This document shows positions 6,770 to 47,446 of a DNA stretch of 64,000 bases, in pieces. The notes beneath the pieces were generated by a model, which saw nothing but the letters and a program-made list of their open reading frames with translations, was not told where the DNA came from and did no database searches. Numbering within the stretch: position 1 is the stretch's first letter; the number at the start of each line of letters is the position of its first letter. The stretch is from an uncultured virus (IMG/VR IMGVR_UViG_3300008267_009160) (Duplodnaviria; Heunggongvirae; Uroviricota; Caudoviricetes): IMG/VR virus record IMGVR_UViG_3300008267_009160, positions 1-64,000 of that record, one strand, 5' to 3'. The position numbers and the translations under genes are program-made.

Positions 6770-6770
6770 A

Positions 6771-7100: not shown

Positions 7101-7117
7101 CGTTTTATAATAAATAT

Positions 7118-8332: not shown

Positions 8333-8336
8333 ATAT

Positions 8337-15200: not shown

Positions 15201-15211
15201 ATAAAGTTTAT

Positions 15212-16512: not shown

Positions 16513-16515
16513 CTT

Positions 16516-17186: not shown

Positions 17187-18498
17187 TGCTTGTTGCTTTT
17201 GTAAGTTTTGGAATATTGAGTGTTGGCATTTTAGGGAGAACTAAAGCTTGAAACTTCGGAGCTTTCTCGTTCAAGAACTTATTTAAGAGCTCCGACATTG
17301 CATCAAAGCTAAACTCTTTTTTTGCTTTATAGGCTTGTCGTTTAGCTAGGTCCAAGTACTTATCGTAGTTTTCATATAGTTCTAACATCATTTGATTAGT
17401 CTGAAGAGGGTCTGGTGCAAACCAGGATGCTTCGGCTATAATGGTGTTTTCTACGACTGCGCTTGGATGTACTTTAGTTAAACTACCGGACAATAGAAAA
17501 GTAAATTTAGGGTCTAGAAAATCTGTATGACCAGACCAACCGCTTGCTATAATAGGTTTTTTAACTTGAGTAAATTCAAGAAGGGGTCTTCCAAATCCTT
17601 CCCCTTTTGTGAAGTTAAGCATTGCTTTGACTTTAGGGTGGTTGTAGAGGTAATTAATCTCCTCCTCAGGCAGGTCTCCATATAGTAAATATATTCTAGG
17701 CAAATCTCCCTGTACTACATTTTGAATTTCAGAAAGTCTGCTAAGTATAACGTCTCTGTCAACAATGCTTGCACCGCTCATAGCAGTTTTCAAAATCAAG
17801 GCTGGTTTGTTCTTTCTATTTTTAAAAGTTTCTAAGAAAGCTTTTACCATGTAGCCTACATTTTTTCTATCCTCGTTTATGGAACCGGGTAGCCAATGCC
17901 CGACGAATAGGTAGCAGAAATCTTCTTCGATACTGTCTAAATCCTCTATTAATTCTGTTGCAGGGAGATCTGCATCCTCTATGGAGTAGTATTTATTAAG
18001 ATCAACTCCTTCAAATAAAACTTCAACTGGGACTTTTAATTCGATAACACCTGTGGTCTGATCTTGTTTATTTCTGATTTCTGCTCTAGAATTTACAAAA
18101 ACATTCTTAGCATGATTAGAAGAAACCAATACTAGGTTCATTCTATTACAACCTTCTATCCAAGAAGGATGACATATGTTAGTTTCAATCCCTGCCGTGA
18201 CTCCACAGTTCCATTTGCCTACAGGTTGAAACTCAGTCGGAATTGTAATTTGAAACCAGTAGTCCGGCTGTTTAGGAAGTTGGTTACCTGCCAACATATA
18301 CTTTTTCATCCATCCCCATTCTTGTTCGTGGTCTGATAAGTATCCGAAAGGTAAAGCACCCCATCTTTGAGACATGATTTTAATTTCCCATTCTTCTCCT
18401 TTCTCTTTTATTAGAGCTTTAATAAAATCTCTAGCACGAGCTCCATATCCGGAGTACGTATCTGGTGGAGCAGAAACTACGCATAACGGTTTATTCAT
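17176..18498 (-). CDS. glycosyltransferase (GT4-like)
   Basis: SGYGARARD, DRKNVG, TKGEGFGRPLLEF, SGWSGHTDFL. Confidence 0.85.
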   Translation of the reverse strand: MNKPLCVVSAPPDTYSGYGARARDFIKALIKEKGEEWEIKIMSQRWGALPFGYLSDHEQEWGWMKKYMLAGNQLPKQPDYWFQITIPTEFQPVGKWNCGVTAGIETNICHPSWIEGCNRMNLVLVSSNHAKNVFVNSRAEIRNKQDQTTGVIELKVPVEVLFEGVDLNKYYSIEDADLPATELIEDLDSIEEDFCYLFVGHWLPGSINEDRKNVGYMVKAFLETFKNRKNKPALILKTAMSGASIVDRDVILSRLSEIQNVVQGDLPRIYLLYGDLPEEEINYLYNHPKVKAMLNFTKGEGFGRPLLEFTQVKKPIIASGWSGHTDFLDPKFTFLLSGSLTKVHPSAVVENTIIAEASWFAPDPLQTNQMMLELYENYDKYLDLAKRQAYKAKKEFSFDAMSELLNKFLNEKAPKFQALVLPKMPTLNIPKLTKATSNDK

Positions 18499-18499
18499 A

Positions 18500-19942
18500 T
18501 TAGTAAATTAATTTGTGTGTTAGTTTTTTTCGAGGTAATTTAGCAGCATGTATAAGTTCATGTTGCTTTCTAGGTTTCCATGTCTTTAATGTTTCTTCTA
18601 CTCCTTCTATAATATTCTCTCCCATAAGCTCACCTGACATCATAGCTTCTCTAGAGGTAGCCCATTCACGGCCTTTTAAACCTCTTCTTACTCTTTCTTC
18701 AGAGTCAAGGTTGTAACACTCCTCCATTGCTTGTGCTAAGTCTCTAAAGTCAGCCCTATCGTCCCAAATGTAGGGTGTTGCTAGAGATCCCACCATTGAA
18801 GAGTTAGAAGGAAATACCGGTATAGCCCATTCACCACATTCCTTATACGTACCGAAATGGTTAGAGCAAAAATTCTCATTAAAGTCAATCCACTTACCAT
18901 TCTCATCAACAAACCTCATCTGGTCTTGCATACCACCTGTTACAGTTGCTATAAACATCTTACCGCACATCATCGCTTCAGTTAAAGAGAGACCCCATCC
19001 TTCGTTACTAGAAGGAAGACAGACAGCATCGACGCTGTTGTATAGGTACTTCATGTCTGCAGGAGCGTATTTCGCCGGTGTAAATTCTACATTAGTGTGT
19101 TCTGGGTCGCAAAGTAATTCTTTAACTGCTAGGAGGTCTGTACCGTTTTGATCTAGAGGGTCTGTGTGTAGTAGGAGTAAACATTTTTTTGCTTTCTCTT
19201 TTCCTATCTTTTCGCAGAAGACAGTGTAGCCAGCTATAAGATCTGAGGGACTCTTTCTTCTAATATTTCTAGAATTGTATAAAAATACGAAATCGTATTG
19301 CTTATCTTTAAAAAGATTCTTTTTGAATTCTTCAAGCTTTTTAAACTCTTCTTCGTTGTTCTGGTCAATAGGGATAAACATCTTAGAATTTATACCGTGA
19401 GGTACATACTTCAACACTTTATCCTTTGTTTTCTCTCCTAAGACTAGCTTGTTTATATTTAAAGTTTGCTTTGATATAGCAAATAAAGCGTCGCAGGATT
19501 CGTAAAAAGATTTATTATATAGCGGAGCAGGCAGATCATCCCAGATGTTTAAGTACATCATCGGAATTTTCTTTCTAATTTCGCTCTCTATTGCAAATAA
19601 CCAACCCCAGTATCTAGGATCTGTAAAAAAGATTATACCGTCTGGTCTTTCTCTATCGATAAGAAATCGTATCAGATCTGCGTTGCCATATCCATTAGTC
19701 GGGTATATAAGACCTGATGCGTCTGGAATGTTAGCGTTTTGACTTAAGTCCTGAGATATATCAATTACTTTTTGCTTATCTGGATGCTCTATCGCAGCAC
19801 CTAGTTGAACCCAGTTAAAACGGTGACAGGTTTGAACTACTAGCTCTCGAGACATAGTAGCAATTCCTGAATGAAGTCTTAGATCGTCTGATAAAAGTAG
19901 TAGTTTCTTTCTTTTTTCTTTTGGAATGTAACCTTCTCTCAT
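18500..19942 (-). CDS. glycosyltransferase family 4
   Basis: VPHGIN, RNIRRK, PSSNEGWGLSLTEAMMCG. Confidence 0.88.
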   Translation of the reverse strand: MREGYIPKEKRKKLLLLSDDLRLHSGIATMSRELVVQTCHRFNWVQLGAAIEHPDKQKVIDISQDLSQNANIPDASGLIYPTNGYGNADLIRFLIDRERPDGIIFFTDPRYWGWLFAIESEIRKKIPMMYLNIWDDLPAPLYNKSFYESCDALFAISKQTLNINKLVLGEKTKDKVLKYVPHGINSKMFIPIDQNNEEEFKKLEEFKKNLFKDKQYDFVFLYNSRNIRRKSPSDLIAGYTVFCEKIGKEKAKKCLLLLHTDPLDQNGTDLLAVKELLCDPEHTNVEFTPAKYAPADMKYLYNSVDAVCLPSSNEGWGLSLTEAMMCGKMFIATVTGGMQDQMRFVDENGKWIDFNENFCSNHFGTYKECGEWAIPVFPSNSSMVGSLATPYIWDDRADFRDLAQAMEECYNLDSEERVRRGLKGREWATSREAMMSGELMGENIIEGVEETLKTWKPRKQHELIHAAKLPRKKLTHKLIY

Positions 19943-28804: not shown

Positions 28805-28910
28805 CAGCCAGGGGAGGAATCGAACCTCCACGCTTAAATTAAGCGGACACTAAAAGTGCCTGTGTATATCCTTCGGTAGTCATATGCCTACACGTTTTCA
28901 CCACCTAGCT
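28805..28910 (-). ncRNA. tRNA-like element with enlarged D-loop and atypical anticodon arm
   Basis: Acceptor AGCTAGG/CCTGGCT, T arm GGAGG-TTCGATT-CCTCC, variable arm CGCTTA/TAAGCG; 106 nt. Confidence 0.6.
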
Positions 28911-31608: not shown

Positions 31609-31776
31609 ATGAAAGAACAAGTATTAGGCCTAGTAAGACACGCTTTAACTTTTGTCGGCGGTATTATCGTCGCTAAAGGACTTCTTGACGAGGCTCTTTT
31701 TCAAGAAGTACTCGGCGGAGTTATGACTCTAGTCGGTGCTGTTTGGTCAATTGCTTCTAAGAAGAAAGCAGCTTAA
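31609..31776 (+). CDS. small two-TM holin-like protein (55 aa)
   Basis: Hand-translated MKEQVLGLVRHALTFVGGIIVAKGLLDEALFQEVLGGVMTLVGAVWSIASKKKAA; below ORF-track cutoff. Confidence 0.8.
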   Translation: MKEQVLGLVRHALTFVGGIIVAKGLLDEALFQEVLGGVMTLVGAVWSIASKKKAA

Positions 31777-31800
31777 TCTAACTGTTCTCACTTTTTAATG

Positions 31801-31826
31801 AGCCGGCTTTATGCCGGCTTTTTTTT
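31801..31826 (+). terminator. intrinsic terminator
   Basis: AGCCGGC-TTTAT-GCCGGCT-TTTTTTT. Confidence 0.85.
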
Positions 31827-31827
31827 G

Positions 31828-31899
31828 TACTCGGTACGGGAATCGAACCCGTATCTTATCCGTGAAAGGGATACGTCCTAACCGTTAGACGAACTGAGC
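31828..31899 (-). tRNA. tRNA-Glu(TTC)
   Basis: TATCC-CTTTCAC-GGATA. Confidence 0.93.
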
Positions 31900-31902
31900 G
31901 TG

Positions 31903-31973
31903 TTACTCCGACTGGGCTCGAACCAGGAACTGCAGAATCAAAATCTGTCGTGTTACCATTACACCACGGAGCA
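31903..31973 (-). tRNA. tRNA-Gln(TTG)
   Basis: ACAGA-TTTTGAT-TCTGC; U1-A72. Confidence 0.92.
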
Positions 31974-31979
31974 ATGTAG

Positions 31980-32051
31980 TAGAGTAGACAGGGCTCGAAC
32001 CTGCACGCACTTGCTCCCAAAGCAAGGGACCTACCATTGGTCAACTACTCT
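31980..32051 (-). tRNA. tRNA-Pro(TGG)
   Basis: CTTGC-TTTGGGA-GCAAG. Confidence 0.88.
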
Positions 32052-32056
32052 ATTAG

Positions 32057-32128
32057 AGCTCCCATCCGGAATCGAACCGAATTATCTTGATTACAAGTCA
32101 AGTGCATCGCCTGCAATGCTTTGGGAGC
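32057..32128 (-). tRNA. tRNA-Thr(TGT)
   Basis: CTTGA-CTTGTAA-TCAAG. Confidence 0.9.
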
Positions 32129-32134
32129 TGTTAG

Positions 32135-32207
32135 CGCGGATGGTAGGACTCGAACCTACAACCTTCGGTTTTGGAGACCGCAACTCTACCAATTGAGCTA
32201 CACCCAC
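32135..32207 (-). tRNA. tRNA-Trp(CCA)
   Basis: GCGGT-CTCCAAA-ACCGA; G73. Confidence 0.92.
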
Positions 32208-32211
32208 GTTT

Positions 32212-32715
32212 CTACTTATTCAATATGTCAATGATCTTCTTCTTTATACCAGCTTCTTTCAGACCCTGGTTATCTTTAGTTCTAACAAACTTATCCCTTG
32301 CATCTCCCTTGTCTAATAGGTCTTTTAAGTCTAAGTCGTCTAGAATAACAAACTGTTTTAAATCAAAGTGATTAATGAAATCCAGCACTTCATTTGCTCG
32401 GTTTTTTTCGAGCCAAGAAAAGCTTACAGGTTTATTCTTTGTAACAGATCTTGGCATTTTATTAATACCGTTATGCTTAAAGATTTCAGCTAACTGAACT
32501 AATCCCCAATGGTGCCTCCAATCAGAACTTACTACAATCTCTGCTTCTGTTTCTTCTACTATTTCGTTTAGGATCTTAACGCATTTCTCATCGAAAGGAT
32601 AAGGTACTCCGAGTTCTTTTGCCCATTCGTATTTTTTCCAAAAGTTAACTCTATTCCTCATAAATTGCTCTTCTGTTGCTACTACTCCGTCGATGTCTAA
32701 AAAAATTACTTTCAT
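32212..32715 (-). CDS. HAD-family phosphatase (HAD_SAK_2, RNA-repair-associated type)
   Basis: IFLDIDGV, IVVSSDWR, FVILDDLD. Confidence 0.82.
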   Translation of the reverse strand: MKVIFLDIDGVVATEEQFMRNRVNFWKKYEWAKELGVPYPFDEKCVKILNEIVEETEAEIVVSSDWRHHWGLVQLAEIFKHNGINKMPRSVTKNKPVSFSWLEKNRANEVLDFINHFDLKQFVILDDLDLKDLLDKGDARDKFVRTKDNQGLKEAGIKKKIIDILNK

Positions 32716-32729
32716 ATACTTCAGTTAAT

Positions 32730-32761
32730 AAAAAAGCCCCAGATTTTTATATCCAGGGCTC
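32730..32761 (-). terminator. intrinsic terminator (attenuator) upstream of the HAD-tRNA operon
   Basis: GAGCCCTGGAT-ATAAAA-ATCTGGGGCT-TTTTT ending 15 nt before the HAD ATG. Confidence 0.82.
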
Positions 32762-32787
32762 TTTGTAAATTCTTATATTGGTAAAAG

Positions 32788-32868
32788 TTATCTTACAATA
32801 CATGCCCTGTTGCTTACTGGTTCTTGCCAGCTAGTCGTGGGGGTTGTGTATGTGTTAGATATCTTCAT
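32788..32868 (-). CDS. putative attenuator leader peptide (26 aa)
   Basis: MKISNTYTTPTTSWQEPVSNRACIVR; contains CAGGGC complementary to the terminator 5' arm. Confidence 0.7.
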   Translation of the reverse strand: MKISNTYTTPTTSWQEPVSNRACIVR

Positions 32869-32882
32869 ATGATTGTTACTTG

Positions 32883-32890
32883 TATAAATA
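32883..32890 (-). promoter_or_regulatory. TATTTATA promoter-like element
   Basis: 14 nt upstream of the leader ATG; the same motif precedes other genes. Confidence 0.5.
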
Positions 32891-32908
32891 CACTTGATAA
32901 ATAAAAAA

Positions 32909-33778
32909 CGACCTGAGACTACAGTCTTTATGTTAACTCTTTTGCAGCATTATTGATTCTCTGCTTGTCCAGTACCTTTTGAGCACTATGTTAACAATGC
33001 CGGTTGTTAGGTCAACCACCCCTTGAGGTGCTTTTATTGTGGTCTACTCTCTTCTTACTCTAACCGTTCTACCCTGCCGGGCAGATAAGTCCTTGCGGGA
33101 CTACGATCTTTTCATAAGAATCATTATTGGCTTGCGACCTTTAATGGCAATGGACAACCCATTACTGTGTAGGCATCTTTCGACCGCACCTGGCAAGCGC
33201 TTAAGCTTATTATGTTATTGTAATTTTGCAATCCAATGCAAATAAGTTTGACTTGTGGATTATAGAAGTAGTGGCTTGCCCTGAGCCTGCTCAGCTTTTG
33301 GCCGAGTTGATACTCAACTACTCCTTGAGATGTCCCCATCTCGGTTAACTTTAGACTACTTCATTACAACACCTTGGTAGGTAATCGTAAAGGATATTAG
33401 CAGCACCACCTGTTCTACATCTTACCTTTCGGTTTTAAGTACCCTTTCAGTTCTGGGCGTCGCAATAATATGGTTGGATAAACTATATGTCTTGCATGCA
33501 CCCTTCGGGTTAATCTTATTGCTCTTCCGAGCTCAACCAAACGACCCACATCGCTTAGTCTACCAACCACTTTCCCTACAGTGTTACCCTCAGTACTAAA
33601 GGTCAGTAGATATCCCGATTGCATACTCGAGCTCCTTCCGAAAGGAGCCGCAGATCCACTCAGTCAAATGAATCCACTTTATACCGGTTTCCCGGTTTAT
33701 TTAACGACTATATGCCGCCGACTGCTATTTACTACCGATCTTACTCTCGCAAGCGATTTCAGACCTTCGAAGGGATAA
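32909..33778 (-). ncRNA. large structured ncRNA, probably GOLLD
   Basis: About 870 nt, GC-richer, no credible ORF; many GNRA/UUCG hairpins; next to phage tRNAs; own promoter and 3' U-tract; family call from memory, not a search. Confidence 0.65.
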
Positions 33779-33822
33779 CAGTATGTCAAAGAACTTCTGT
33801 TGTTATCTTCTTATCTATAAAT

Positions 33823-33856
33823 TAAAGATAGCTTCTTTAATTCAGACTAACAACTT
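33823..33856 (-). promoter_or_regulatory. Bacteroidota-type promoter for the large ncRNA
   Basis: AAGTTG-N20-TATCTTTA; boxA-like GTTCTTTGACATA at 33782-33794. Confidence 0.65.
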
Positions 33857-33872: not shown

Positions 33873-35519
33873 TTAAAAACCCATTCCCATATCCATCATC
33901 CCAGATCCTTCCTTCTTTTCTTCTTTCTTGTTAAAGATTACGGATTCGGTTGTAAGGATCGTACCAGCCACAGAAGCAGCATTCTCGATCGCAATACGCA
34001 CTACCTTGGTCGGATCAAGCAATCCAGCTTCGAAAGCATCGACTACTTTACCAGCTTTGGCATCGTAGGTGCTGTTACTTAATCCGGACTGCATTACTTC
34101 TGTTGCAATTTCATGCCAGTTCTCAATACCTGCGTTAGCAAGGATTCTAACAAAAGGAGCTTTACATGCTCTTAGTAGAATTTGTTTACCGATATCTTCA
34201 CTGTAATCGCTACCAAGAGTAATATTGTCAACAGCTTTATTAACTGCTTTATACAGAGCAATACCTCCGCCTGATACGATTCCTTCATCAAGAGCTGCTC
34301 GGGTAGCAAATAGTGCATCCTCTACTCTATCTTTCTTTTCTTTTATTTCAAGTTCACTATTACCTCCAACTGAGATTACTGCTACACCTCCGACAAGCTT
34401 TCCGAGCCTCTCTTGTAGTTTTTCTTTGTCGTAGAAGGAAGCTGCTTTTTCGATCTGATCTTTAATGTCTAAAGCTCTTTGCTGAATAGCTTCTTTACTT
34501 CCAACTCCATCAACAATTGTTGTTTTTTCTTTTTCAACTGTTACAGTTCTAGCTTTACCTAAATACTGTTCAAGTACATTGGCGTTAATTTTATCTAGCT
34601 TATGTCCTTTATCTTTAGACAGTACTTGACCGCCTGTAATGATTGCTAGATCTTCAAGTGCTAAGGTTCTTCTTTCTCCGAACTCCGGTGCTTTTACTGC
34701 AACACCTCTTACAATACCTCTTGCTTTATTCACAATTAGGGTAGCTAGAGCTTCTCCGTCTATGTCTTCCGCAACAATTAAGAGAGGTTTATTCTCTGCA
34801 TTAGCTTTAGTCATTACAGGGAGTAATTCAGCTGCTGTTGTAATACGGCCGTCGTACATAAAAATATACGCATCTTCAAGAACAGCTTGCATAGTGTTAT
34901 TGTTCGTCACAAAGTAAGGAGATTTGTATCCTCTATCAAATTGCATACCTTCTACTGTCTCTAATTCAGTTTCACCGGTCTTACTCTCCTCGATAGCAAC
35001 TACTCCATCACGTCCAACTTTTTCAAGAGCTGTTGCGATTAAGTTTCCAATCATCTCATCGTTATTACCTGAGATAGTTGCAACTTGTTTAATCTGCTCT
35101 TCGGTATCTAGTTCTTTAGAGACTTCTTTTAGTGCAGCTACAATCTCTTTTACTGCTTTATCTATACCTCTTTTAACTGCAACAGGACTTACTCCCTGGT
35201 TAATTGCTTTCAAACCTTCTTCTACAATAGTTGCGGCAAGGAGAGTAGAAGTTGTTGTACCGTCTCCAGCTTCATTAGCTGACTTGATGGATACTTGTTT
35301 AACAAGTTGAGCACCGATATTTTCAACCTCGTCTTCGATTTGCGAGAAAGCCTTCGCAACAGTAACGCCGTCTTTAGTAACTTTAATTCCATTTACGTTA
35401 TCTTCAATTAATACTGTTCTACCACCAGGTCCTAGTGTTGATGAAACACTGTTGTTTAATTTCTGGATTCCTTTTAGTAGTTTGTTTTTTAATTCAATTC
35501 CAAATAAGCTGTCAACCAT
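33873..35519 (-). CDS. groEL: chaperonin GroEL
   Basis: TLGPGGR, VTKDGVTVAK, AGDGTTT, GMQFDRGY, GSGMMDMGMGF tail. Confidence 0.97.
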   Translation of the reverse strand: MVDSLFGIELKNKLLKGIQKLNNSVSSTLGPGGRTVLIEDNVNGIKVTKDGVTVAKAFSQIEDEVENIGAQLVKQVSIKSANEAGDGTTTSTLLAATIVEEGLKAINQGVSPVAVKRGIDKAVKEIVAALKEVSKELDTEEQIKQVATISGNNDEMIGNLIATALEKVGRDGVVAIEESKTGETELETVEGMQFDRGYKSPYFVTNNNTMQAVLEDAYIFMYDGRITTAAELLPVMTKANAENKPLLIVAEDIDGEALATLIVNKARGIVRGVAVKAPEFGERRTLALEDLAIITGGQVLSKDKGHKLDKINANVLEQYLGKARTVTVEKEKTTIVDGVGSKEAIQQRALDIKDQIEKAASFYDKEKLQERLGKLVGGVAVISVGGNSELEIKEKKDRVEDALFATRAALDEGIVSGGGIALYKAVNKAVDNITLGSDYSEDIGKQILLRACKAPFVRILANAGIENWHEIATEVMQSGLSNSTYDAKAGKVVDAFEAGLLDPTKVVRIAIENAASVAGTILTTESVIFNKKEEKKEGSGMMDMGMGF

Positions 35520-35531
35520 TTTTTATAAATT

Positions 35532-35828
35532 TTAATTTTCTGAAACAATGCCGATTACTTCTACAGTTTTACAGAGGAAATACTCATCACCTCCTAGTGT
35601 AACTCTCATACTACCTACTTTAGGAATAAGCAATTTGTCACCTACGTCGAACTTTGTTTGAACAAATTGACCGGTTTGAAAGTTATAAAAATCACTATAC
35701 GCGATTACTTCGCCAATAGCTGGTTTTTCTTTTCCTAGATCAGGAATAATAATGTTGCCTGCAAGGATCTCTTCCTCTTCTACAGGCTTGAGCAAAACGT
35801 ATCCGTTTAGCGGTTTTAATACACTCAT
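35532..35828 (-). CDS. groES: co-chaperonin GroES
   Basis: LKPLNGYVLL, AGNIIIPD.GKEKP; adjacent to groEL. Confidence 0.92.
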   Translation of the reverse strand: MSVLKPLNGYVLLKPVEEEEILAGNIIIPDLGKEKPAIGEVIAYSDFYNFQTGQFVQTKFDVGDKLLIPKVGSMRVTLGGDEYFLCKTVEVIGIVSEN

Positions 35829-35852
35829 ACTTTTATTTTTAATATAGTAAAA

Positions 35853-36044
35853 TTATTTCAGTTCTTCAACTATTTCTAACTCGGGAATAAGCTCTACAAA
35901 GTATATCATATCTTCCTTTCTCAAAGCCACGTCAGCACCTGTAAAGTATTTCCAGGCTTCAATATTAGGGTTATACTCTGCTTTAACTTTCTTTTTAAGA
36001 ATGTAGAGCTTGTCGTCGAACTTTATAAACTCGTTTCTAAACAT
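35853..36044 (-). CDS. hypothetical protein
   Basis: 63-aa ORF between hsp20 and groES. Confidence 0.6.
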   Translation of the reverse strand: MFRNEFIKFDDKLYILKKKVKAEYNPNIEAWKYFTGADVALRKEDMIYFVELIPELEIVEELK

Positions 36045-36074
36045 AGAGATAATGACAGGTCTTTTATGTGTAAC

Positions 36075-36476
36075 TTATTGTATTTGTACTTTCTTAGGTG
36101 CTCTCTCTTCAGCAAAAGGAATAGTTAATGTTAATAATCCTTTCTCTAGCTTTGCTTCAATTTTGCCAAGATCAAATTTAGTAGCTATTTTCCAAGCTAG
36201 GTCAAAAGAGCTTTTTTTAATTCCTCTGTAAATAGCAGTTTTTTCGTCGTCGGGTTTTTTATACCTAATACGGAGAATATCTCCTTCAGTTAAAATTTCA
36301 ATTTCCTCTTTATCGAGGCCTACTGCTGCTACTTCAATTGCAATACCTGTCGGTGTTTCGTAGATGTCTGTGGGATGGGAAACTTTCTGGTTAATTCCAG
36401 AAAAGTGGTTTGAGTCTTTAAACAGATCCTTCCATAGAAGGTCGAATTCGTCCAGTGTGAATGGTTTAAACGTCAT
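36075..36476 (-). CDS. small heat-shock protein (Hsp20)
   Basis: PTDIYE, EVAAVGLDKEEIEI, AKLEKGLLTLTIP. Confidence 0.92.
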   Translation of the reverse strand: MTFKPFTLDEFDLLWKDLFKDSNHFSGINQKVSHPTDIYETPTGIAIEVAAVGLDKEEIEILTEGDILRIRYKKPDDEKTAIYRGIKKSSFDLAWKIATKFDLGKIEAKLEKGLLTLTIPFAEERAPKKVQIQ

Positions 36477-39407: not shown

Positions 39408-40130
39408 TTAGCATTTATTTACTGCGTTTCTTACGTACATATAGAACTCCTCACGGCATTCTGGCTCGTTAAGGAATGCTCCGGAAAGCTTAGCTGTCTG
39501 CATAGAAGCACCTTGATGCTTAACTCCGCGGCATGATACACAACTATGTTTACTGTCTACAACCACCGCTACTCCTAGGTTATCTGGTATAACAGTATTC
39601 AGGGTATCAAAGATCTGCATAGTTAAATCTTCTTGAATCTGACCTCTTCTAGAATACTGTTCTACTATTCTGTTTAATTTAGAGAGTCCCATTACTTGCT
39701 TAGATTCTCCTGGTATGTAACCTACGTGACATACACCTAAAATCTGCTGATGGTGATGTGCGCATTGAGAGAATACCGGAATATTAGTCTCTACAATAAT
39801 ACCGTCGTAGTTCGAAGGAAAGGTTGTAATCTCACTCATAAGATCGTACCTACCTTTCCAGAGATCATTTACATAGGCCTTAGCTACGCGCTTAGGTGTA
39901 TTCTCACTATTCGGATCACTTTGCCAATTAACACCGAGGGCGTTTAGGAACTTACCGTAGTGGTGTGCTGCTTCAGTAATAATAGCATCTTTTTCTTCTG
40001 AGTTTAGAGAGCGATGCTCTCCTTTGTAAATTAAGTTTGCTAATTGAGTAGAAACTCCGTTAGCAAAACCTACTGTAGACTCTTCGAGTTTTTCAATATT
40101 AACTGTTAACGGTTTTTGCTTGTTGCTCAT
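39408..40130 (-). CDS. folE: GTP cyclohydrolase I
   Basis: TPKRVAK, SQCAHHH, GLSKLNR, QIQEDLT, HSCVSCRGV. Confidence 0.95.
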   Translation of the reverse strand: MSNKQKPLTVNIEKLEESTVGFANGVSTQLANLIYKGEHRSLNSEEKDAIITEAAHHYGKFLNALGVNWQSDPNSENTPKRVAKAYVNDLWKGRYDLMSEITTFPSNYDGIIVETNIPVFSQCAHHHQQILGVCHVGYIPGESKQVMGLSKLNRIVEQYSRRGQIQEDLTMQIFDTLNTVIPDNLGVAVVVDSKHSCVSCRGVKHQGASMQTAKLSGAFLNEPECREEFYMYVRNAVNKC

Positions 40131-40317
40131 ATTTCTTTAATTGTTCTTTTAATTTATCGATTTGTTCTTGAAGTTCCAACGTTTTTTGGGAATGCAAAGT
40201 AATTAATCCTACAATATTAACACTCACTACAGTTTCAAACTGAGTGAATCTGAACCATACGTAGGCTTGTGCACCACAGAGTGTTAGCAGTACTATTGTG
40301 AAGATGTCAAAGCTCAT
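40099..40317 (-). CDS. small membrane protein
   Basis: N-terminal hydrophobic helix plus coiled coil. Confidence 0.6.
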   Translation of the reverse strand: MSFDIFTIVLLTLCGAQAYVWFRFTQFETVVSVNIVGLITLHSQKTLELQEQIDKLKEQLKKYEQQAKTVNS

Positions 40318-40327
40318 TTATTTTGTT

Positions 40328-40699
40328 TTAATTTTTATCGTAACATTCTTTACATAATTGTCCTGCTCCTTCAACGTACCCGTACCTGAAGTTAATATTA
40401 ACATCGTAAGTGTAAGGAGTTTCTTTGCCGCAGATAATGCAATGCTCTATACTGTTAGAGTTTAACTCTCCTGGAACTTCAATACCCCAGCAGTTTGGGC
40501 CGCCGTCGTAAGTCATTCTCTTACTCCAAAGGTCCGGTGCTTTTCTCATAAAATAACCTAGGTCGTAGTTATTAGGAAGCAGTAGTGTAAGTCGTCTTAG
40601 AACCTCGTAGACATCTTCTGGTGTTTTAGCTTTTTTAAGCTTTTCTTCTAGGTTTGTAATAGCATTAAGAGTGTGCTGGTTAAAGGTGGGAGTATTCAT
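40328..40699 (-). CDS. hypothetical protein with C-terminal Zn finger
   Basis: CIICG...YVEGAGQLCKEC. Confidence 0.65.
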   Translation of the reverse strand: MNTPTFNQHTLNAITNLEEKLKKAKTPEDVYEVLRRLTLLLPNNYDLGYFMRKAPDLWSKRMTYDGGPNCWGIEVPGELNSNSIEHCIICGKETPYTYDVNINFRYGYVEGAGQLCKECYDKN

Positions 40700-40709
40700 A
40701 ATTAAACAT

Positions 40710-41573
40710 TTACTTTTCTAATTGTTGTATGTAGTTTAATAATCTGTCTTTAGGTGCCCATCCTAATCTTTCTACAGCATCACTATTAACACGTAAAGTC
40801 TTTCTATAATTACCTTGTTGCTCTGGGATGTTTATTGTTTCACATCCGAATTTATCGCAGAACATTTTAGCTACTTCGTTTACAGAGTAGTTACATCCTG
40901 TACCTAGCTCCCAAGCATCTTCATGCTTCTCATCAGACTCGGCAACTCTTATAAGCCCATCTACGATATCTTGAACGTGTGTGAAATCTCTACGTTGCTC
41001 TCCATCACCTACAATCGTCAGTTTCTCATTATTCTGAAGCTGTTTTCTCCACACCCCGATTACTGCAGCCATATGACTGTCTACTAGCTCACCAGGACCG
41101 TATACATTATAGAATCTAACGATTTCTGCGTTAAGCCCAAAACATTTAGTGCTCATCTTTATCCACTGCTCTCCCATGTACTTTGTCATAGCGTAGGGGG
41201 ATAATTCTGGGTTGTGGTGTTTAGATGATGATCCTGCGTATATAAGTTTAGCGCTTACTTTCAAAGCGTAATCAACTACCTGTCTAGTTCCCTCTACATT
41301 AGAGGTAAAAGTTTGTCTAGGTTGTGCAAAAGAAGGTTGAATTCTACTTAACGCGGCAAGATGAAAAATATACTTATAATTCTTTAAAGCAACATTTTCC
41401 ATGGCTCTTACATCACCTCCTAGGAAATTTGCACCTATCAGGTCAACATCCTTGGCTTCTTTTCCTATACTTAAATTATCTATTACATCGACATTATAGC
41501 CTCTGAGTAGAAGCTCTTTAGTTAGGGCATATCCTACAAAGCCACATCCTCCGGTTACTAGTACATTTTCCAT
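40710..41573 (-). CDS. NAD-dependent epimerase/dehydratase
   Basis: VTGGCGFVG, FHLAA, YAMTK, RFYNVYGP, GDGEQRRDFTHV. Confidence 0.9.
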   Translation of the reverse strand: MENVLVTGGCGFVGYALTKELLLRGYNVDVIDNLSIGKEAKDVDLIGANFLGGDVRAMENVALKNYKYIFHLAALSRIQPSFAQPRQTFTSNVEGTRQVVDYALKVSAKLIYAGSSSKHHNPELSPYAMTKYMGEQWIKMSTKCFGLNAEIVRFYNVYGPGELVDSHMAAVIGVWRKQLQNNEKLTIVGDGEQRRDFTHVQDIVDGLIRVAESDEKHEDAWELGTGCNYSVNEVAKMFCDKFGCETINIPEQQGNYRKTLRVNSDAVERLGWAPKDRLLNYIQQLEK

Positions 41574-41576
41574 AGT

Positions 41577-42413
41577 TTATACATTTAATGTTTTATTCCA
41601 AGCTGCAATATGCAAACGAGTTAATCCTCTAAAGCGGTATTTTTTAGCCATTTCAAGACAGAACTGAGTGCGTTCTTCAAAATCAGCTACATCGTCTAAT
41701 CCAGGCATACAAACTATATTCTTAAGAGGAATATTTAACGGAGTTACAAATTCTTCAAATATCTCCTTAACATCTTCTTCGGTACTGATAACGAATTTAA
41801 ACTGGTAGTTTTTATGCTCCATAATACGCTTAAGAGCTGCTTCATTAAAGCGTTGTGATTTAGTCATCCCCGAGTTTGCTAGCTTAGGAGAGCAATTAAT
41901 CTGGTCGAGCATTTTAAAGAGAGGTTCGTCAATATAGACTGTGCCGTTGGTTTCAATCTCGTAATACGGTCTGACAGTGTTATCGAGGTGTCTTGCAAGC
42001 CAGTAATTGGTAAAGTTAACGATTGATTGTTGATGTCCTTTTATTGTCGGTTCGCCGCCAGTCCAAATAATATGAACATTGCCATCTAGAATATCCTCGT
42101 AAACACCTTCTTCTTTCCATCGGTTAATTAGGTATTCGAATTCTTTATCTTCTCCTCTCCACAACCACTGGCTTGTACTATCACAAGTCCAGGTTGCTTT
42201 ACCTTCAGCATGTAAGTCTCCTATAAAGATTTCTCCATCTTCTAGCTTCTGCTCTTTAGCTAACATATTAGTGAATACTCTACTCATACCGCAAGTAAGG
42301 TTGCAGATACCTAAACGAACAAAGTAAGAAGGTATTCCCGAAGAGATGCCTTCACCTTGTATTGAGTAGAAGTCAGAGCTGATTAATAATTTTTTTGGAT
42401 CTATTTTACTCAT
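41577..42413 (-). CDS. queE: 7-carboxy-7-deazaguanine synthase (radical SAM)
   Basis: FYSIQGEG, RLGICNLTC with insertion before WTCDS, TGGEP, IETNG, SPKL. Confidence 0.9.
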   Translation of the reverse strand: MSKIDPKKLLISSDFYSIQGEGISSGIPSYFVRLGICNLTCGMSRVFTNMLAKEQKLEDGEIFIGDLHAEGKATWTCDSTSQWLWRGEDKEFEYLINRWKEEGVYEDILDGNVHIIWTGGEPTIKGHQQSIVNFTNYWLARHLDNTVRPYYEIETNGTVYIDEPLFKMLDQINCSPKLANSGMTKSQRFNEAALKRIMEHKNYQFKFVISTEEDVKEIFEEFVTPLNIPLKNIVCMPGLDDVADFEERTQFCLEMAKKYRFRGLTRLHIAAWNKTLNV

Positions 42414-42661
42414 AATTTACTTTTTTGTTCTTGTATAAATTGAAGATAAGGAATCCATTTTACATATGTAAGTTCTTCGTCTGGGAATCCTAATAGTATA
42501 TTGCCGGTTTCGTCTTTTGCTATCATAGTAAATCCGAAGCCTTCACATATCATATGAATTCCGTATTCAGGTTCTAGAGCTTCTGCTTCTTTTTCGATAT
42601 CGAAATCCCAAGGAAATTCCGGGTCATTTATTTCGCAGTATTGTTTACTAAACTCTGCCAT
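42410..42661 (-). CDS. hypothetical protein
   Basis: MAEFSKQYC...ICEGFG. Confidence 0.65.
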   Translation of the reverse strand: MAEFSKQYCEINDPEFPWDFDIEKEAEALEPEYGIHMICEGFGFTMIAKDETGNILLGFPDEELTYVKWIPYLQFIQEQKSKL

Positions 42662-42791
42662 TTGTAATCGTTTTTATATAATTTAAAACAAAACTAACAT
42701 TAGGCCATTCGGTTACTGCTGCAAAAAAACTAAGGTGTTTTTCTCCGCAGAGGCCTATTGCATGTTCTAAAGCGTGCAATACTTCGCTCAT
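42648..42791 (-). CDS. small hypothetical protein (47 aa)
   Basis: Hand-translated MSEVLHALEHAIGLCGEKHLSFF...; overlaps both neighbours' ends. Confidence 0.55.
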   Translation of the reverse strand: MSEVLHALEHAIGLCGEKHLSFFAAVTEWPNVSFVLNYIKTITNGRV

Positions 42792-43018
42792 CAGTCTTGT
42801 CTTTGTTTTTCTTTAATCTGCTTTCTACGAGCAGCTTTCTTAGAGATAGTCTTTTCTTTCTTCTGCTCTTGAACTTCTTGCTGTTCAGTTTTTTCTCGAG
42901 TTAAAGCTTTCCATTCGGATTTAGCTACATACTGCCATTCTCTGCCTACCATGTTGTAAGCTTGTTGATCTGTAACACGGATAATGTTTCCGGTCTTTTC
43001 GCTTTTTAAACACTTCAT
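42791..43018 (-). CDS. hypothetical basic protein
   Basis: 75-aa ORF. Confidence 0.65.
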   Translation of the reverse strand: MKCLKSEKTGNIIRVTDQQAYNMVGREWQYVAKSEWKALTREKTEQQEVQEQKKEKTISKKAARRKQIKEKQRQD

Positions 43019-43041
43019 TGGTTATTCCTCCATGTTTTAGG

Positions 43042-43560
43042 TTATAGAAATTTTGAAATTTGACTTAGACGCTCTTCTACCGTGCCTCTTAGTACCACTA
43101 CTTTTTCTTCTGGGATATGTTGCTTTATAAATTGTATGATAATATCGTCAATCTTACTTTGTAATTCTTGCCAAGCTCCACCGGGCCTACCTTCATCTAT
43201 AACATAACCAAACTCAATAGGTATGTAAAAAAAGTACTCTACCCGGTCTTTAGTTTCCTCAAACAAATTTATAATTCCTTCAACATCTACATCGGGTGCT
43301 AGTATTTGAGAGTATATAATACAGTCAATTACGCTTCGAGTACTAATTACGTTCTTATGAGTAAGGTAATTCTGATATGCCCAAGCAGAAAGTTCGTTAA
43401 TTACGTATTGCTGTTCGTCGAGAGAAAAATCTAACGATTTAGCAATCTTAGTTACCGGCCTTGAAAATCCATCTGTAACATAGTAATCTGGATAGTGCTT
43501 AGCAACTTCCTTAAGCAGAGTACTTTTGCCTACTCCGTGAGCTCCTAGTAGTATTTTCAT
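43042..43560 (-). CDS. P-loop nucleotide kinase-like (AAA_28/NadR type)
   Basis: GAHGVGKST, TRSVIDC, LRGTVEER. Confidence 0.78.
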   Translation of the reverse strand: MKILLGAHGVGKSTLLKEVAKHYPDYYVTDGFSRPVTKIAKSLDFSLDEQQYVINELSAWAYQNYLTHKNVISTRSVIDCIIYSQILAPDVDVEGIINLFEETKDRVEYFFYIPIEFGYVIDEGRPGGAWQELQSKIDDIIIQFIKQHIPEEKVVVLRGTVEERLSQISKFL

Positions 43561-43587
43561 TAAGTCTTTTGTTAAAGATAAGCTTTA

Positions 43588-44190
43588 TTATTGGAACTGC
43601 CAAACTTTAGTAAAGAAATATTTCCAAGATTCTAAGGAAGTTCTCCTCAGTAATGCATAAGCATGATCCGCATTAATAGTTATATTCTTTGTCCTAACCT
43701 CAGCTACTACTCTACCGGAATCTAATTGTGGGATTACTTCATGTATAACACTACCGCAGTCCGGATAGTCTGCTTGCTTTCCAGCAATTGCTTCTTGCAT
43801 ATTAAATCCTTTTAACTCAGGATACTTAGTTATAAGAGCAGGATGTCCATTGTAGATACTACCTGCGTATCGACCAAAAAACCCTGCTGGAATTATTCTC
43901 AAGTAACCGTGTAGTGTTATAAGTTTCTTGCTCAACAAAGTTTTACTTAGGTAGTCTTCTAAGACAGGCTTAAACGGTATAATCATTATGTCTACCTCAT
44001 TCTGCTTAAATATCTCCAGGTTTTCTGCTGTTATCTTACCTAGGTTATTGGTTACAACAAGACTGGGGAGATACCCAATCTCTTTACTTATAGCTATTAC
44101 TTCAGATCCAGTTTGAGAAATAAGTACTCCCCAGCTTTCTTGCTTTTTCATATTACTGTCCCATTGCTTTTTTAGTGTATACTTTTGCAT
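43588..44190 (-). CDS. PurN-like formyltransferase (candidate DpdN)
   Basis: LHGYLRII, NGHPALI, GSVIHEV...LDSG; true start probably MKKQES. Confidence 0.82.
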   Translation of the reverse strand: MQKYTLKKQWDSNMKKQESWGVLISQTGSEVIAISKEIGYLPSLVVTNNLGKITAENLEIFKQNEVDIMIIPFKPVLEDYLSKTLLSKKLITLHGYLRIIPAGFFGRYAGSIYNGHPALITKYPELKGFNMQEAIAGKQADYPDCGSVIHEVIPQLDSGRVVAEVRTKNITINADHAYALLRRTSLESWKYFFTKVWQFQ

Positions 44191-45067
44191 CGATTAATGC
44201 TTGTGGTATTAAATCCAGCCTAGTAGCACGTACAGGGTTGATATCTAAAGATCCTCTTCTAGAATACAGTAACATTACAACACAATCTTTTACTTGAGGA
44301 ACACTCGTTAGAGCTGTAAACAGCTTTTCACTACAAAATTCATGAAACTCATTAACTTCCCTCAAGGCTATAACCTCTTTTAATAAGGATTGTAAATCTA
44401 AAATACCACCCTCAGTTTTAATGTGAAAATAAGCTGCTCCAGTATCTTTCTGCTTAGTATGTCGACATCTAGAACGTAGTGCGTTAGTGAAAACTTTAAA
44501 CTCACTGCCATGCCCTTCTTTTATTTTAAAATGAAAATTCTCGGCAGTATAGTCTGTTATCTCCATTTTCTCTAGCTTTTCATCGCCGATATAACCTTCC
44601 AGTAGCCTGTATCCTGAAGCTGGATCTGCTTCTACTAGTACGTCAAGCTCATCACCAGGTCTAAAGAATCCAACTTCAACCGGAGCTTGAATAGCTTCTG
44701 AAATATCATGTTTAACTTGAGCTTCATATGCTGCGATTGCTTCTTTAATGGTACCTCCCATCTTACACATATCAAAAGTATTCAAGTAAAGTTTAAAAGA
44801 TTTAGACTCTACCATAAACTCTGATGATGCAGGATATACAATTTTTAAAGTTCCAGCTACAGGAAGTCCGTTGTTAAGTAGGAAAGTAGCTTCGTGACAA
44901 TGCCATGTATCGTATCCTACAAACTCGTCCCCTTTAATGCCCCAATCTTCTCTAGCTAGCTTTCTAGGCATCGGCACTAGGAAAGAAGAATCAAATTTAT
45001 CTGTTGTGATTGCGTAACTGCCCTGTTGACCTAGGTGCTTACTTGCAATGTCGTTCATTCCACTCAT
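44153..45067 (-). CDS. queF: NADPH-dependent preQ0 reductase (two-domain type)
   Basis: VESKSFKLYLN, LRSRCRHTKQKDTG, EFHEFC, YSRRGSLDINPVR. Confidence 0.9.
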   Translation of the reverse strand: MSGMNDIASKHLGQQGSYAITTDKFDSSFLVPMPRKLAREDWGIKGDEFVGYDTWHCHEATFLLNNGLPVAGTLKIVYPASSEFMVESKSFKLYLNTFDMCKMGGTIKEAIAAYEAQVKHDISEAIQAPVEVGFFRPGDELDVLVEADPASGYRLLEGYIGDEKLEKMEITDYTAENFHFKIKEGHGSEFKVFTNALRSRCRHTKQKDTGAAYFHIKTEGGILDLQSLLKEVIALREVNEFHEFCSEKLFTALTSVPQVKDCVVMLLYSRRGSLDINPVRATRLDLIPQALIDAKVYTKKAMGQ

Positions 45068-45873
45068 AGTTTTTTTCCTTTTATAATTTGACGAATAGTT
45101 AAGACGTTATGTGAGATAGATCTCATTTGATCTGGAGTTATTGTTCTATCCAGGTTATCGGCAAGCTTCTCTTTAGGTTTAGGTTTGTCTGTTCCTCCCC
45201 AGCTAAAGTTAATATCGTTCCAGCCGTATACAATAGGTGCAGAAGAATCTACAGAGTAGATAAGTTCTTTATCCTCTTTTGTATAGAGTACATACTCGGA
45301 ATAATTTTGAAGACCTAAGAGATGCACCTGTAAGTGATTATCCTTCAATACGTTCTTCATATGCTGAAAGACAATATAACGTATGTTATGGTAGTCTGTG
45401 CCTGGAATGGTATCGTAAGGCATAGCTACGATCTCAATTGCTGGGCATTGTCTTTTCCAGTAGGTAATCTCGTTAAGAGATTTGTATAGCTCTCCCATAT
45501 TGGTACCTTGTATAACAGCAATAAGCTTGAAAGGTATTCTATGTAAGCTTCCATATCTGTTTTCTAAAAACGAAAGGAATGCTTTTAAGAACTCGATAGT
45601 TTTATCACAATCGTTAACCCAGTCGGGAACTACTACATGGGTAGGTTTAACGCGTTCTGCTGCTTCAATTAAGATTTCAAAATCAACAGATTTTCCTAAT
45701 TCAAAAGCACTATTATCTAAAATAGAAAAAGTTGCATTTTTACACTTTCTAATATAGAAGTCTGTATACTCTTGATCTTGTCCAATCAAGTGAGCTAGCA
45801 CATAAGGGTAGTCGTTAATAAGGTCGTGAATAGGAAATAACTGCTTTGGAATTTCGTGGCTAATTAAGGTCAT
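45064..45873 (-). CDS. TGT/DpdA-like 7-deazaguanine transglycosylase-family protein
   Basis: ILDNSAFELG, AVIQG, VHLLG, SVDSS; lies between queC and queF. Confidence 0.7.
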   Translation of the reverse strand: MTLISHEIPKQLFPIHDLINDYPYVLAHLIGQDQEYTDFYIRKCKNATFSILDNSAFELGKSVDFEILIEAAERVKPTHVVVPDWVNDCDKTIEFLKAFLSFLENRYGSLHRIPFKLIAVIQGTNMGELYKSLNEITYWKRQCPAIEIVAMPYDTIPGTDYHNIRYIVFQHMKNVLKDNHLQVHLLGLQNYSEYVLYTKEDKELIYSVDSSAPIVYGWNDINFSWGGTDKPKPKEKLADNLDRTITPDQMRSISHNVLTIRQIIKGKKL

Positions 45874-45879
45874 TTTATT

Positions 45880-46740
45880 TTATTTTTGATATTCTGCTAA
45901 TACTTTTTCAACATGCTCTTTAGCTACAGTCCATTTTACAGGCCCAGTTTCGTCAGCATAAGCTACAGGATCAGGACGACCTAGCTTAATAAATGCTTCA
46001 ATACGCTCTACTGATGCTGCTGATTTATAGTCTGAATACCAGTCTAATTCAGTACTAGCATTTGTTGCGAAAGAGATCGGCTTGTAGCTGGTATTAGTAC
46101 GTTTATATACTTCGTTAAAATCTAAACCTAGTGCTTCGCAGCATTCTTCTCCATCTTTTAAAATATCAAATTTATTTAGTTCAAGATAAGGAGTATAGTG
46201 TGATACTAAATGCGAATCCCAATTACCAATTTTAAATGCTTCAAAATCAGCATCACGAAACTCTTGTCTACAATCAGGATAAATTGCATGATCGCCGGCA
46301 TGTATTCCCATTGCAATAACTACCTCTTGACCTACAGCACAATCATCTGTAATCGTTTTTGTTGCAATTGAAAGTGCTACTGCTTGAATAAGTGAAGCAA
46401 AGATTTTATTACGGTTAGGAACAACGGTATCTTTCATATTGTCCTGCTCATAATGTCCTTCTGGAACATCCCATCCTCCTTCTACGAGAGCAGAATTAAG
46501 GAGTTTTGTTATTCCGTCAATTTTAATAACCTGATGTCTTACAAAATTGTCTGTTTTTGTAAAAAACATTTTATCGTTAATATAACCCACTAGGGATTTA
46601 GCTCTTTCTAATTCGACTTTATGCTTTTGGCCATAGTCAAAACTAAGAGCTGTTACTTCGTAGCCGTTAGCTAGAAGGTGTAAAAGGAGAGTAGAGGAAT
46701 CCATTCCTCCTGAAAGGCTGAGAACTGCTTGCTTTTTCAT
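45880..46740 (-). CDS. queC: 7-cyano-7-deazaguanine synthase
   Basis: SLSGGMDSS, FDYGQKH, VVPNRN, YPDCR. Confidence 0.93.
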   Translation of the reverse strand: MKKQAVLSLSGGMDSSTLLLHLLANGYEVTALSFDYGQKHKVELERAKSLVGYINDKMFFTKTDNFVRHQVIKIDGITKLLNSALVEGGWDVPEGHYEQDNMKDTVVPNRNKIFASLIQAVALSIATKTITDDCAVGQEVVIAMGIHAGDHAIYPDCRQEFRDADFEAFKIGNWDSHLVSHYTPYLELNKFDILKDGEECCEALGLDFNEVYKRTNTSYKPISFATNASTELDWYSDYKSAASVERIEAFIKLGRPDPVAYADETGPVKWTVAKEHVEKVLAEYQK

Positions 46741-46784
46741 CTTTTAAAGTATATTGTTTGAGGAAGTATTTACTTATTAAACGC

Positions 46785-46985: not shown

Positions 46986-46986
46986 A

Positions 46987-47433: not shown

Positions 47434-47446
47434 AACTGTTTTATTT

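Follow-up and report, generated by a model that had tools for sequence, protein, structure and literature searches.

A short open reading frame (ORF) folded into an RNA hairpin stands between a GOLLD non-coding RNA and an operon of one HAD-family phosphatase gene and five tRNA genes in a 64,000-nt stretch of DNA from a large freshwater phage, recorded as an uncultured virus (Caudoviricetes; IMG/VR record IMGVR_UViG_3300008267_009160, positions 1 to 64,000), here called the window. We favour, tentatively and without confidence, reading this element as a transcription attenuator in which ribosomes on a leader peptide would set whether the operon is transcribed. The codons of the mini-ORF match the anticodons of the five tRNAs, an intrinsic terminator separates it from the operon, and part of the leader can pair with the 5' arm of that terminator. 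Coordinates below are those of the window, and the switch elements and the operon all lie on the minus strand.

32788..32868, minus: 26-codon mini-ORF including its stop (TAA, 32790-32788), peptide MKISNTYTTPTTSWQEPVSNRACIVR
32781..32865, minus: hairpin 1:2, on the same stretch as the ORF (folding)
32792..32809, minus: segment 2, CAGGGCATGTATTGTAAG, the 5' strand of the proposed antiterminator (duplex tests)
32754..32769, minus: segment 3, TTTACAAAGAGCCCTG, overlapping the terminator 5' arm (folding)
32730..32764, minus: intrinsic terminator with 14-bp stem, 6-nt loop and U-run (folding)
32212..32715, minus: HAD_SAK_2 phosphatase-like gene, 167 aa (Pfam)
32207-32134, minus: tRNA-Trp(CCA) (ARAGORN and Rfam)
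32128-32056, minus: tRNA-Thr(TGT) (ARAGORN and Rfam)
32051-31979, minus: tRNA-Pro(TGG) (ARAGORN and Rfam)
31973-31902, minus: tRNA-Gln(TTG) (ARAGORN and Rfam)
31899-31827, minus: tRNA-Glu(TTC) (ARAGORN and Rfam)

Leader codons match the anticodons of the operon

Thr codons occupy positions 6, 8, 9, 11 and 12 of the mini-ORF, and TGG-CAA-GAA-CCA forms codons 14-17. TGG, ACA, CCA, CAA and GAA are the exact complements of the five downstream anticodons. An initial annotation, made from the sequence alone, had reported both the 26-codon ORF and its cognate-codon match, and both are present where it placed them. Pfam, ARAGORN and Rfam likewise bear out the HAD gene and the tRNA set (Trp, Thr, Pro, Gln, Glu) that it listed.

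This codon content is unusual. All five cognate codons occur in 2 of the 364 window ORFs of 20-35 codons, the leader included, and the leader alone among these carries four distinct cognate codons consecutively. As a control, 4830 ATG ORFs of 20-35 codons from 1.39 Mb of other phage loci yielded 12 with all five codons, 1 with a four-codon run and none with both the run and all five. The chance of the leader's codon pattern is roughly 1e-4 to 1e-3 per ORF, before correction for multiple testing over the many stretches screened.

Mutually exclusive RNA structures in the spacer

Hairpin 1:2 folds at -22.7 kcal/mol (z = -3.99), a stability that none of 200 shuffles equals; it begins shortly behind the ATG and ends shortly beyond the stop codon. 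Its CA-rich 5' arm and UG-rich 3' arm flank an apical stem-loop, CUGG-CAAGAA-CCAG. Codons 2-10, the Thr run among them, fall in the 5' arm (segment 1), where five of seven codons are Thr; codons 21-26 and the stop fall in the 3' arm (segment 2). The terminator (5' arm 32764-32751, loop 32750-32745, 3' arm 32744-32732, U-run to 32730) folds at -18.4 kcal/mol (z = -5.4), again with 0 of 200 shuffles as good, and ~14 nt separate its U-run from the HAD ATG.

The initial annotation had placed an intrinsic terminator before the HAD gene, which is confirmed at 32764-32730 with the z score just given, and had proposed two leader-terminator pairings, both of which are present: CAGGGC (32809-32804) with GCCCTG (32759-32754), and TTGTAAG (32798-32792) with TTTACAA (32769-32763). 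When the 99 nt from the ATG were tested against 19 nt including the terminator 5' arm, the best duplex reached -16.1 kcal/mol, compared with -8.7 +/- 2.2 kcal/mol for shuffled sequences, 0.6% of 2000 of which attain the observed value. None of 134 natural terminator-like sites in other loci reaches -16.1 kcal/mol, and a z of -3.5 or below occurs at 1 of the 134. Folded as one molecule, the two-helix antiterminator of the initial annotation comes to -12.1 kcal/mol. An alternative form, a local hairpin plus the 6-bp CAGGGC:GCCCUG helix, comes to -14.2 kcal/mol, and this helix appears in the minimum-energy fold of an RNA truncated before the terminator 3' arm.

Three mutually exclusive helices, each above chance, could equally belong to a switch that ribosomes do not read, one flipped by a protein, a phage antiterminator or another RNA (perhaps GOLLD or tRNA), or the spacer could release a trans-acting small RNA (sRNA) of ~150 nt. 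Such an arrangement would suit an operon with no promoter behind its terminator; many terminator-bearing sRNA models score 17-19.5 bits on the stretch, and factor-dependent antitermination is common in phages. We nevertheless consider it improbable. No Rfam family, T-box or other riboswitch included, reaches threshold on 32700-32910, no candidate binding factor was identified, no conserved relatives define a ligand-binding core, and the in-frame codon match is left unexplained. The best sub-threshold Rfam matches on 32700-32910 are to His_leader (RF00514, 21.8 bits), Thr_leader (RF00506, 20.5 bits) and the trpB motif (19.9 bits); the element resembles these families and is not a member of them.

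The leader lies at the end of a GOLLD transcription unit

Leader and operon are not free-standing. They sit at the 3' end of a GOLLD transcription unit, which the initial annotation overlooked.

33823..33853, minus: canonical Bacteroidetes-type GOLLD promoter, TTG-N20-TATCTTTA (regular expression TTG-N17-21-TAnnTTTR)
33326..33815, minus: presumed variable 5' half of GOLLD RNA; no ORF-based gene here
32910..33325, minus: conserved 3' domain of GOLLD RNA (RF02032; Rfam covariance model)
32896..32925, minus: GOLLD terminal hairpin and U-run (folding)
32882..32893, minus: weak promoter at best, GTGTATTTATAC, containing TATTTATA, with two mismatches to GTATATTTATAA

The GOLLD match scores 260.5 bits (gathering score 150), spans model positions 1-416 of 416 and has E = 5e-73; the RNA at 33325-32910 is a GOLLD member and a new example beside a phage tRNA island. 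It lies in a gene-free stretch (33872-32716) that follows GroES- and GroEL-like genes at 35828-33873 (minus), and its 3' end lies 42 nt upstream of the mini-ORF ATG. From the position of the promoter we infer that the RNA starts near 33815. Part of its 5' half, 33719-33502, is matched by two uncultured huge-phage records (blastn). The terminal hairpin of GOLLD is weak here (-2.6 kcal/mol, z = -0.3), and a hairpin-plus-T-run motif at this 3' end is conserved among GOLLD relatives.

The GOLLD promoter carries an extended -33 motif, GTTGTTAGTCTGAA. The extended motif GTTGNTAGTCTGAA, at 33854-33841 (minus) and followed by TAnnTTT, recurs identically at 1798-1785 and 1878-1865 and with one mismatch at 29203-29190 (minus), and may mark a temporal promoter class. 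The same regular expression finds promoters for tRNA-Met (31573-31544) and for several protein genes. It finds only the GOLLD promoter 5' of the HAD and five-tRNA operon: none occurs between 32910 and 32715, which leaves the leader without a canonical promoter of its own, and none between the terminator and HAD. Expression of HAD and the five tRNAs therefore requires some read-through of the terminator.

The initial annotation had the leader preceded by an TATTTATA element. It is present as placed, at 32889-32882 (minus), and amounts to a -7 box with one mismatch and no correctly spaced TTG. The nearest promoter candidate for the leader, TGTATTTA, likewise has one mismatch and no TTG at the correct spacing. 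The motif GTATATTTATAA is only marginally enriched (33 matches versus 22.4 +/- 4.6 expected), and a scan for sigma-70-type promoters gave counts at shuffle level. Transcription from the GOLLD promoter could substitute for a promoter belonging to the leader. Genes of this phage are preceded by A-rich leaders that lack Shine-Dalgarno sequences; that the mini-ORF lacks one too is no argument against its translation. Together with the promoter type, this feature of the sequence suggests a Bacteroidetes-type host, of Flavobacteriia type.

GOLLD RNA in environmental samples

The stretch is present in sequencing runs of 11 studies, and six of the runs are metatranscriptomes. We compared contigs from three RNA runs of three studies and from one DNA run. 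RNA contigs without a single difference cover 33592-32911 (run X15), 33546-32913 (X18) and 33592-32962 (X17), which is good evidence, if not formal proof given that an RNA library can hold DNA, that GOLLD is made as RNA in nature. Contigs of two studies end no more than 3 nt from the Rfam 3' end of GOLLD (32911 and 32913), and the DNA run continues past this point with no loose end listed there, a weak hint that the stable RNA ends at ~32910. Given the weak terminal hairpin, it is probable that many primary transcripts extend into the spacer and are later cut back.

The RNA contigs of the three runs leave 32910-32290 (leader, terminator and HAD) uncovered, which is evidence neither way. Over the tRNA-Trp, tRNA-Thr and tRNA-Glu genes, the RNA pieces have loose ends and 4-6 differences, and probably derive from other organisms. 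Leader and terminator are unchanged in the one DNA run, with no variation there. Within GOLLD, one X15 RNA contig joins 33182 to 33502, omitting 319 nt, and the RNA runs show several variant letters close together at 33557-33564; both probably reflect related GOLLD variants in the samples.

How attenuation would work

If the element is a ribosome-read attenuator, transcripts would come mainly from the GOLLD promoter at 33853-33823, perhaps also from a weak start near 32880, and polymerase would pass the weak GOLLD terminal hairpin into the 190-nt spacer. With the frame untranslated, hairpin 1:2 and then the strong terminator would form, leaving HAD and the tRNAs off. Smooth translation would have the same outcome, as a ribosome terminating at the stop codon would cover segment 2 and the terminator would again form. 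If a ribosome stalled within the Thr run of segment 1 (the apical TGG, CAA, GAA and CCA codons being less effective sites), segment 2 would be free to pair with the terminator 5' arm, permitting read-through into HAD and the tRNAs. The new tRNAs would then relieve the stall, closing a negative feedback loop. Translation of the frame, stalling and antitermination are each predicted steps of this scheme, and a link to host tRNA-cleaving defences may be envisaged.

A more far-reaching version is a translation-surveillance circuit joined to GOLLD, in which host tRNAs that are depleted, uncharged or cleaved by a defence nuclease would cause stalls and the response would be replacement tRNAs together with a HAD protein possibly healing RNA ends. 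No leader-peptide attenuator would have been shown for tRNA genes before, and GOLLD would gain a genetic link to ribosome and tRNA status. We regard this version as unlikely.

Search for related loci

Searched against viral contigs, the HAD protein recovered 3 identical contigs alone. An alignment of 34 HAD sequences led to 80 viral loci with identity of at most 53%, and an alignment of 13 sequences searched against metagenome contigs gave a best locus that is 53% identical among the matches listed. Homologues of 74-89% identity do exist (P0001-P0006), none of them among those listed metagenome matches. The 7 closest HAD sequences, aligned, retrieved only the 3 identical contigs from viral contigs and nothing from genome contigs, and tblastn against GenBank phages gave 1 match, at 36%. 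A search for GroEL relatives gave 34 non-identical records; GOLLD occurs in 0 of them, and none has HAD or a tRNA array downstream. An anticodon-loop pattern for Trp-Thr-Pro hit 40 loci, and 0 of the 37 non-self loci has a tRNA at the match.

Among the HAD homologues, 16 of the 160 fetched loci were inspected and none has a strong hairpin just 5' of the gene; the last 80 nt before HAD fold at -4.0 to -11.4 kcal/mol in these 16. A tRNA lies within 3.5 kb in 14 of the 80 viral HAD loci. Of 49 viral records with HAD, 6 also have GOLLD, in 5 cases at most ~7 kb from HAD, which indicates that a loose GOLLD/tRNA/HAD module recurs. HAD_SAK_2, a tRNA array and GOLLD occur together at loci L037, L044-L046 and L050 (records G068, G075-G077 and G081), and in L044-L046 a tRNA-Leu(CAG) lies inside the GOLLD match.

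A GOLLD-derived pattern recovered 28 viral loci, 3 from the phage of the window itself and 1 by chance, and the rest represent 17 distinct downstream sequences. Several of these relatives have a canonical promoter for the next gene after the terminator that follows GOLLD, a plan repeated in L234 and L236. The window locus is unusual in its ~130-nt hairpin/ORF insert and in having no new promoter before HAD and the tRNAs.

Is the element an attenuator?

Comparative evidence, the place of the codons within the fold, the energetics and other tRNA arrays all hold points that weigh against a ribosome-read attenuator. No homologous spacer was found in viral, metagenome, genome or GenBank phage collections, so the idea, striking if true, draws on one sequence without relatives; if real, the element would be a lineage-specific invention. 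By eye, at least 13 of the 17 GOLLD relatives have the conserved 3' hairpin and T-run and then, within ~10-100 nt, a strong hairpin and T-run. Terminators being common after GOLLD, the one here is an expected feature. In L207, L208 and L219 a tRNA-Met follows the GOLLD 3' hairpin after 13-26 nt, and none of the GOLLD relatives examined has a mini-ORF leader or HAD directly after GOLLD.

These comparisons bear on the main alternative: that the terminator is the 3' terminator of the GOLLD unit, that the ORF arose by chance in a structured spacer, that HAD and the tRNAs are expressed constitutively at a low level by leakage or from an unrecognised promoter, and that the tRNAs are cut out by RNase P and RNase Z. 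GOLLD owns the only canonical upstream promoter and ends shortly before the ATG, its transcripts probably continue to the strong terminator, and relatives place such a terminator after GOLLD or after an intervening tRNA-Met. Two published accounts already describe GOLLD next to tRNA islands, as well as a GOLLD nanocage of 14 subunits (bioRxiv 10.1101/2024.12.08.627333; PMC6582537). The codon pattern is also partly a matter of structure: the reverse complements TGG and CCA pair with each other as the apical stem, and the Thr codons sit on a CA-rich arm whose partner is UG-rich. Against this alternative, the fresh promoter that relatives have after the terminator is absent here, and the 190-nt spacer between GOLLD and HAD is ~100 nt longer than in most relatives. 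A chance origin must also accept as coincidence the codon pattern with its run, the 2:3 complementarity, the matching extents of ORF and hairpin, and the operon without a promoter. We consider this explanation possible, if rather unlikely.

The spacer hairpin might otherwise be a decayed tRNA or tRNA-like element, given the tRNA-Met at the same post-GOLLD position in the three relatives named above and, by eye, tRNA-like T-arm fragments after GOLLD in L235 and L213. ARAGORN and Rfam find no tRNA in 32910-32716, however, the spacer resembles no fetched locus beyond chance words of 13-17 nt, and the fold is one long hairpin with no cloverleaf, all of which makes a tRNA origin highly improbable.

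Returning to the ribosome-read attenuator, the codons themselves raise difficulties. Classical leaders use runs of control codons, whereas here the Trp, Gln, Glu and Pro codons occur once each at the hairpin apex and Thr alone is repeated. The initial annotation had all of these codons sensing stalls; as single apical codons the Trp, Gln, Glu and Pro codons would be less suited to that role, and only the Thr run lies in segment 1, the best place for a stall. Judged on the folding model, the geometry thus suits the Thr run best, and the W-Q-E-P run, statistically the most striking part, would be less effective at the apex. The start context of the mini-ORF is mediocre, ranking at the 11th percentile when set among 65 true starts and at the 82nd among 1010 other ATGs.

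The energetics are similarly unfavourable. At -12.1 to -14.2 kcal/mol the antiterminator falls short of the terminator (-18.4 kcal/mol), and it leaves 3 nt of the 5' arm free. The attenuator layout claimed in the initial annotation stands as far as the 1:2, 2:3 and 3:4 pairings, the stop in segment 2 and the above-chance codons and 2:3 pairing are concerned; its switching does not appear in simulated stalls. In minimum-energy folds with a 30-nt ribosome mask at ten positions, the terminator persists in 10 of 10, although such equilibrium folds cannot settle a kinetic decision between terminator and antiterminator. With the stall simulated at Gln15 or Glu16, the lower 1:2 stem re-forms. The Rfam leader matches fall far under their cut-offs (49 for His_leader, 55 for Thr_leader and 59 for the trpB motif) and exceed the generic terminator-bearing sRNA models by only 1-3 bits.

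Other tRNA arrays examined give no sign of codon-matched leaders. Before 82 tRNA blocks from other loci, the fraction of anticodons matched in the best upstream mini-ORF was 0.233, versus 0.303 +/- 0.040 after permutation; 483 of 500 permutations were at least as high, and there is no enrichment of cognate codons. Arrays inspected by eye in a GOLLD-bearing 197-kb phage (33 tRNA matches) and in two complete GroEL-related phages (29 and 30 tRNA matches) have no obvious codon-matched leader (G036, G005 and G028). The other tRNA genes of the window phage have no convincing leader either, and its tRNA-Met and tRNA-Arg(CCG) sit directly behind a promoter. In sum, the attenuator reading must do without support from conservation and must accept single codons for 4 of the 5 tRNAs, a weak antiterminator and a mediocre start.

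Relation to known systems

Leader-peptide attenuators govern amino-acid operons, as in thrL, hisL and trpL of E. coli and Salmonella and the multivalent leader of ilvGMEDA. The element shares with thrL, hisL and trpL a short ORF, control codons in the 5' arm of a hairpin, a stop in segment 2, a potential 2:3 pairing that overlaps the terminator 5' arm, and a terminator directly before the candidate regulated genes. Unlike in those systems, the candidate targets are phage tRNAs and a HAD phosphatase and not biosynthetic enzymes, the leader sits at the 3' end of a ~0.9-kb non-coding RNA unit and has no clear promoter of its own, 4 of the 5 matched codons are single, and the antiterminator is comparatively weak.

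T-boxes bind uncharged tRNA directly and control genes for aminoacyl-tRNA synthetases, transport and biosynthesis. As in a T-box, a choice between terminator and antiterminator would be tied to tRNA status; unlike in a T-box, sensing is proposed to run through the ribosome, and no T-box match was obtained. Phage tRNA genes are known as a counter to host tRNA depletion or cleavage, and the operon resembles such sets in combining spare tRNAs with a HAD-family gene. It differs in its candidate leader-peptide control, under which no phage tRNAs are described in the literature searched. A full-text search found no paper linking leader-peptide attenuation to tRNA arrays; the terms co-occur in an RNA-modification review.

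In common with known GOLLD RNA beside phage tRNA islands, the RNA here matches the full-length model, belongs to a large phage, has a tRNA cluster immediately 3' of it and turns up in environmental RNA. The relatives examined have a plain terminator and a new promoter after GOLLD, or tRNA-Met; here GOLLD precedes a hairpin-embedded mini-ORF, a terminator and a HAD-tRNA operon without a promoter.

If the attenuator reading is true, the phage would gauge the decoding of particular codons and answer with the matching tRNAs, turning the logic of the trp operon on the translation machinery, plausibly as a counter to tRNA-depleting host defences. GOLLD, tRNAs and a HAD phosphatase would belong to one regulated unit. 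The question bears on why phages carry tRNA genes, on the timing of their expression and on the function of GOLLD. Should the element prove merely a GOLLD terminator and a chance ORF, the locus would still give a precise map of a GOLLD unit in a Bacteroidetes-type phage, with its promoter, a 3' end supported by environmental RNA and the architecture downstream.

The HAD gene and other features of the window

The HAD protein is a member of HAD_SAK_2 (PF18143; 91.8 bits, cut-off 27.5), a family named after RNA-repair proteins. The motif I aspartates D7 and D9 of FLDIDGV are invariant across the 34 aligned homologues. The gene falls in phrog_1818, whose function is unannotated in PHROG; a sequence search gave no informative relative of solved structure, and a literature search found no paper on HAD_SAK_2. 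A scan of 57 window proteins revealed neither an RNA ligase nor a polynucleotide kinase.

Beyond tRNA-Glu, a GC-rich hairpin with an A-run and a T-run on its flanks closes the operon.

31800..31820, strand unassigned: operon-closing GC-rich hairpin

Ten tRNA genes lie within 5.3 kb 3' of GOLLD. An identical 180,934-bp contig, rated 100% complete, contains these ten tRNA genes and one weak tRNA-like match, and no more. The weak match is a 106-nt element at window positions 28805-28910 (minus), which scores 27.3 bits with the Rfam tRNA model (cut-off 29; scored in the identical 181-kb contig). ARAGORN does not call it, it has a clear T-arm, GGTTCGATTCC, and it may be either a decayed tRNA or one that carries a long insert. 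A holin gene of 55 aa (Phage_holin_10, 69 bits) at 31609-31776 lies amid the tRNA region on the opposite, plus strand, between the five-tRNA operon and tRNA-Met and tRNA-Arg.

One further ORF of the tRNA region was considered as a second attenuator. It lies at 30810-30688 (minus) before tRNA-Arg(TCT), begins MNRQCEQRRRD and holds AGG, AGA, AGA and CGA; among 319 ATG ORFs of 15-50 codons, 3 contain AGA-AGA in tandem. The ORF begins in the stretch enclosed by a 12-bp long-range stem, GAAGAGTTGTTA with TAGCAACTCTTC, which is followed by a T-run (30859-30729, minus) and encloses ~88 nt before the tRNA. We rejected it: among true starts its start context ranks at the 5th percentile, its frame extends into the tRNA gene, and a stall would favour the enclosing hairpin and not prevent it.

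Directly 5' of GOLLD, genes for Hsp20, GroES (Cpn10) and GroEL (Cpn60) are consecutive at 33873-36476 (minus). Further upstream, at 39408-47911 (minus), genes of the 7-deazaguanine pathway encode GTP cyclohydrolase I and QueF-like, QueC and PTPS/QueD-like proteins, a gene set that suggests modified phage DNA or tRNA. Positions 3397-19942 (minus) hold a long block of glycosyltransferase, sugar epimerase/dehydratase, aminotransferase and methyltransferase genes, the size of which is unusual for a phage.

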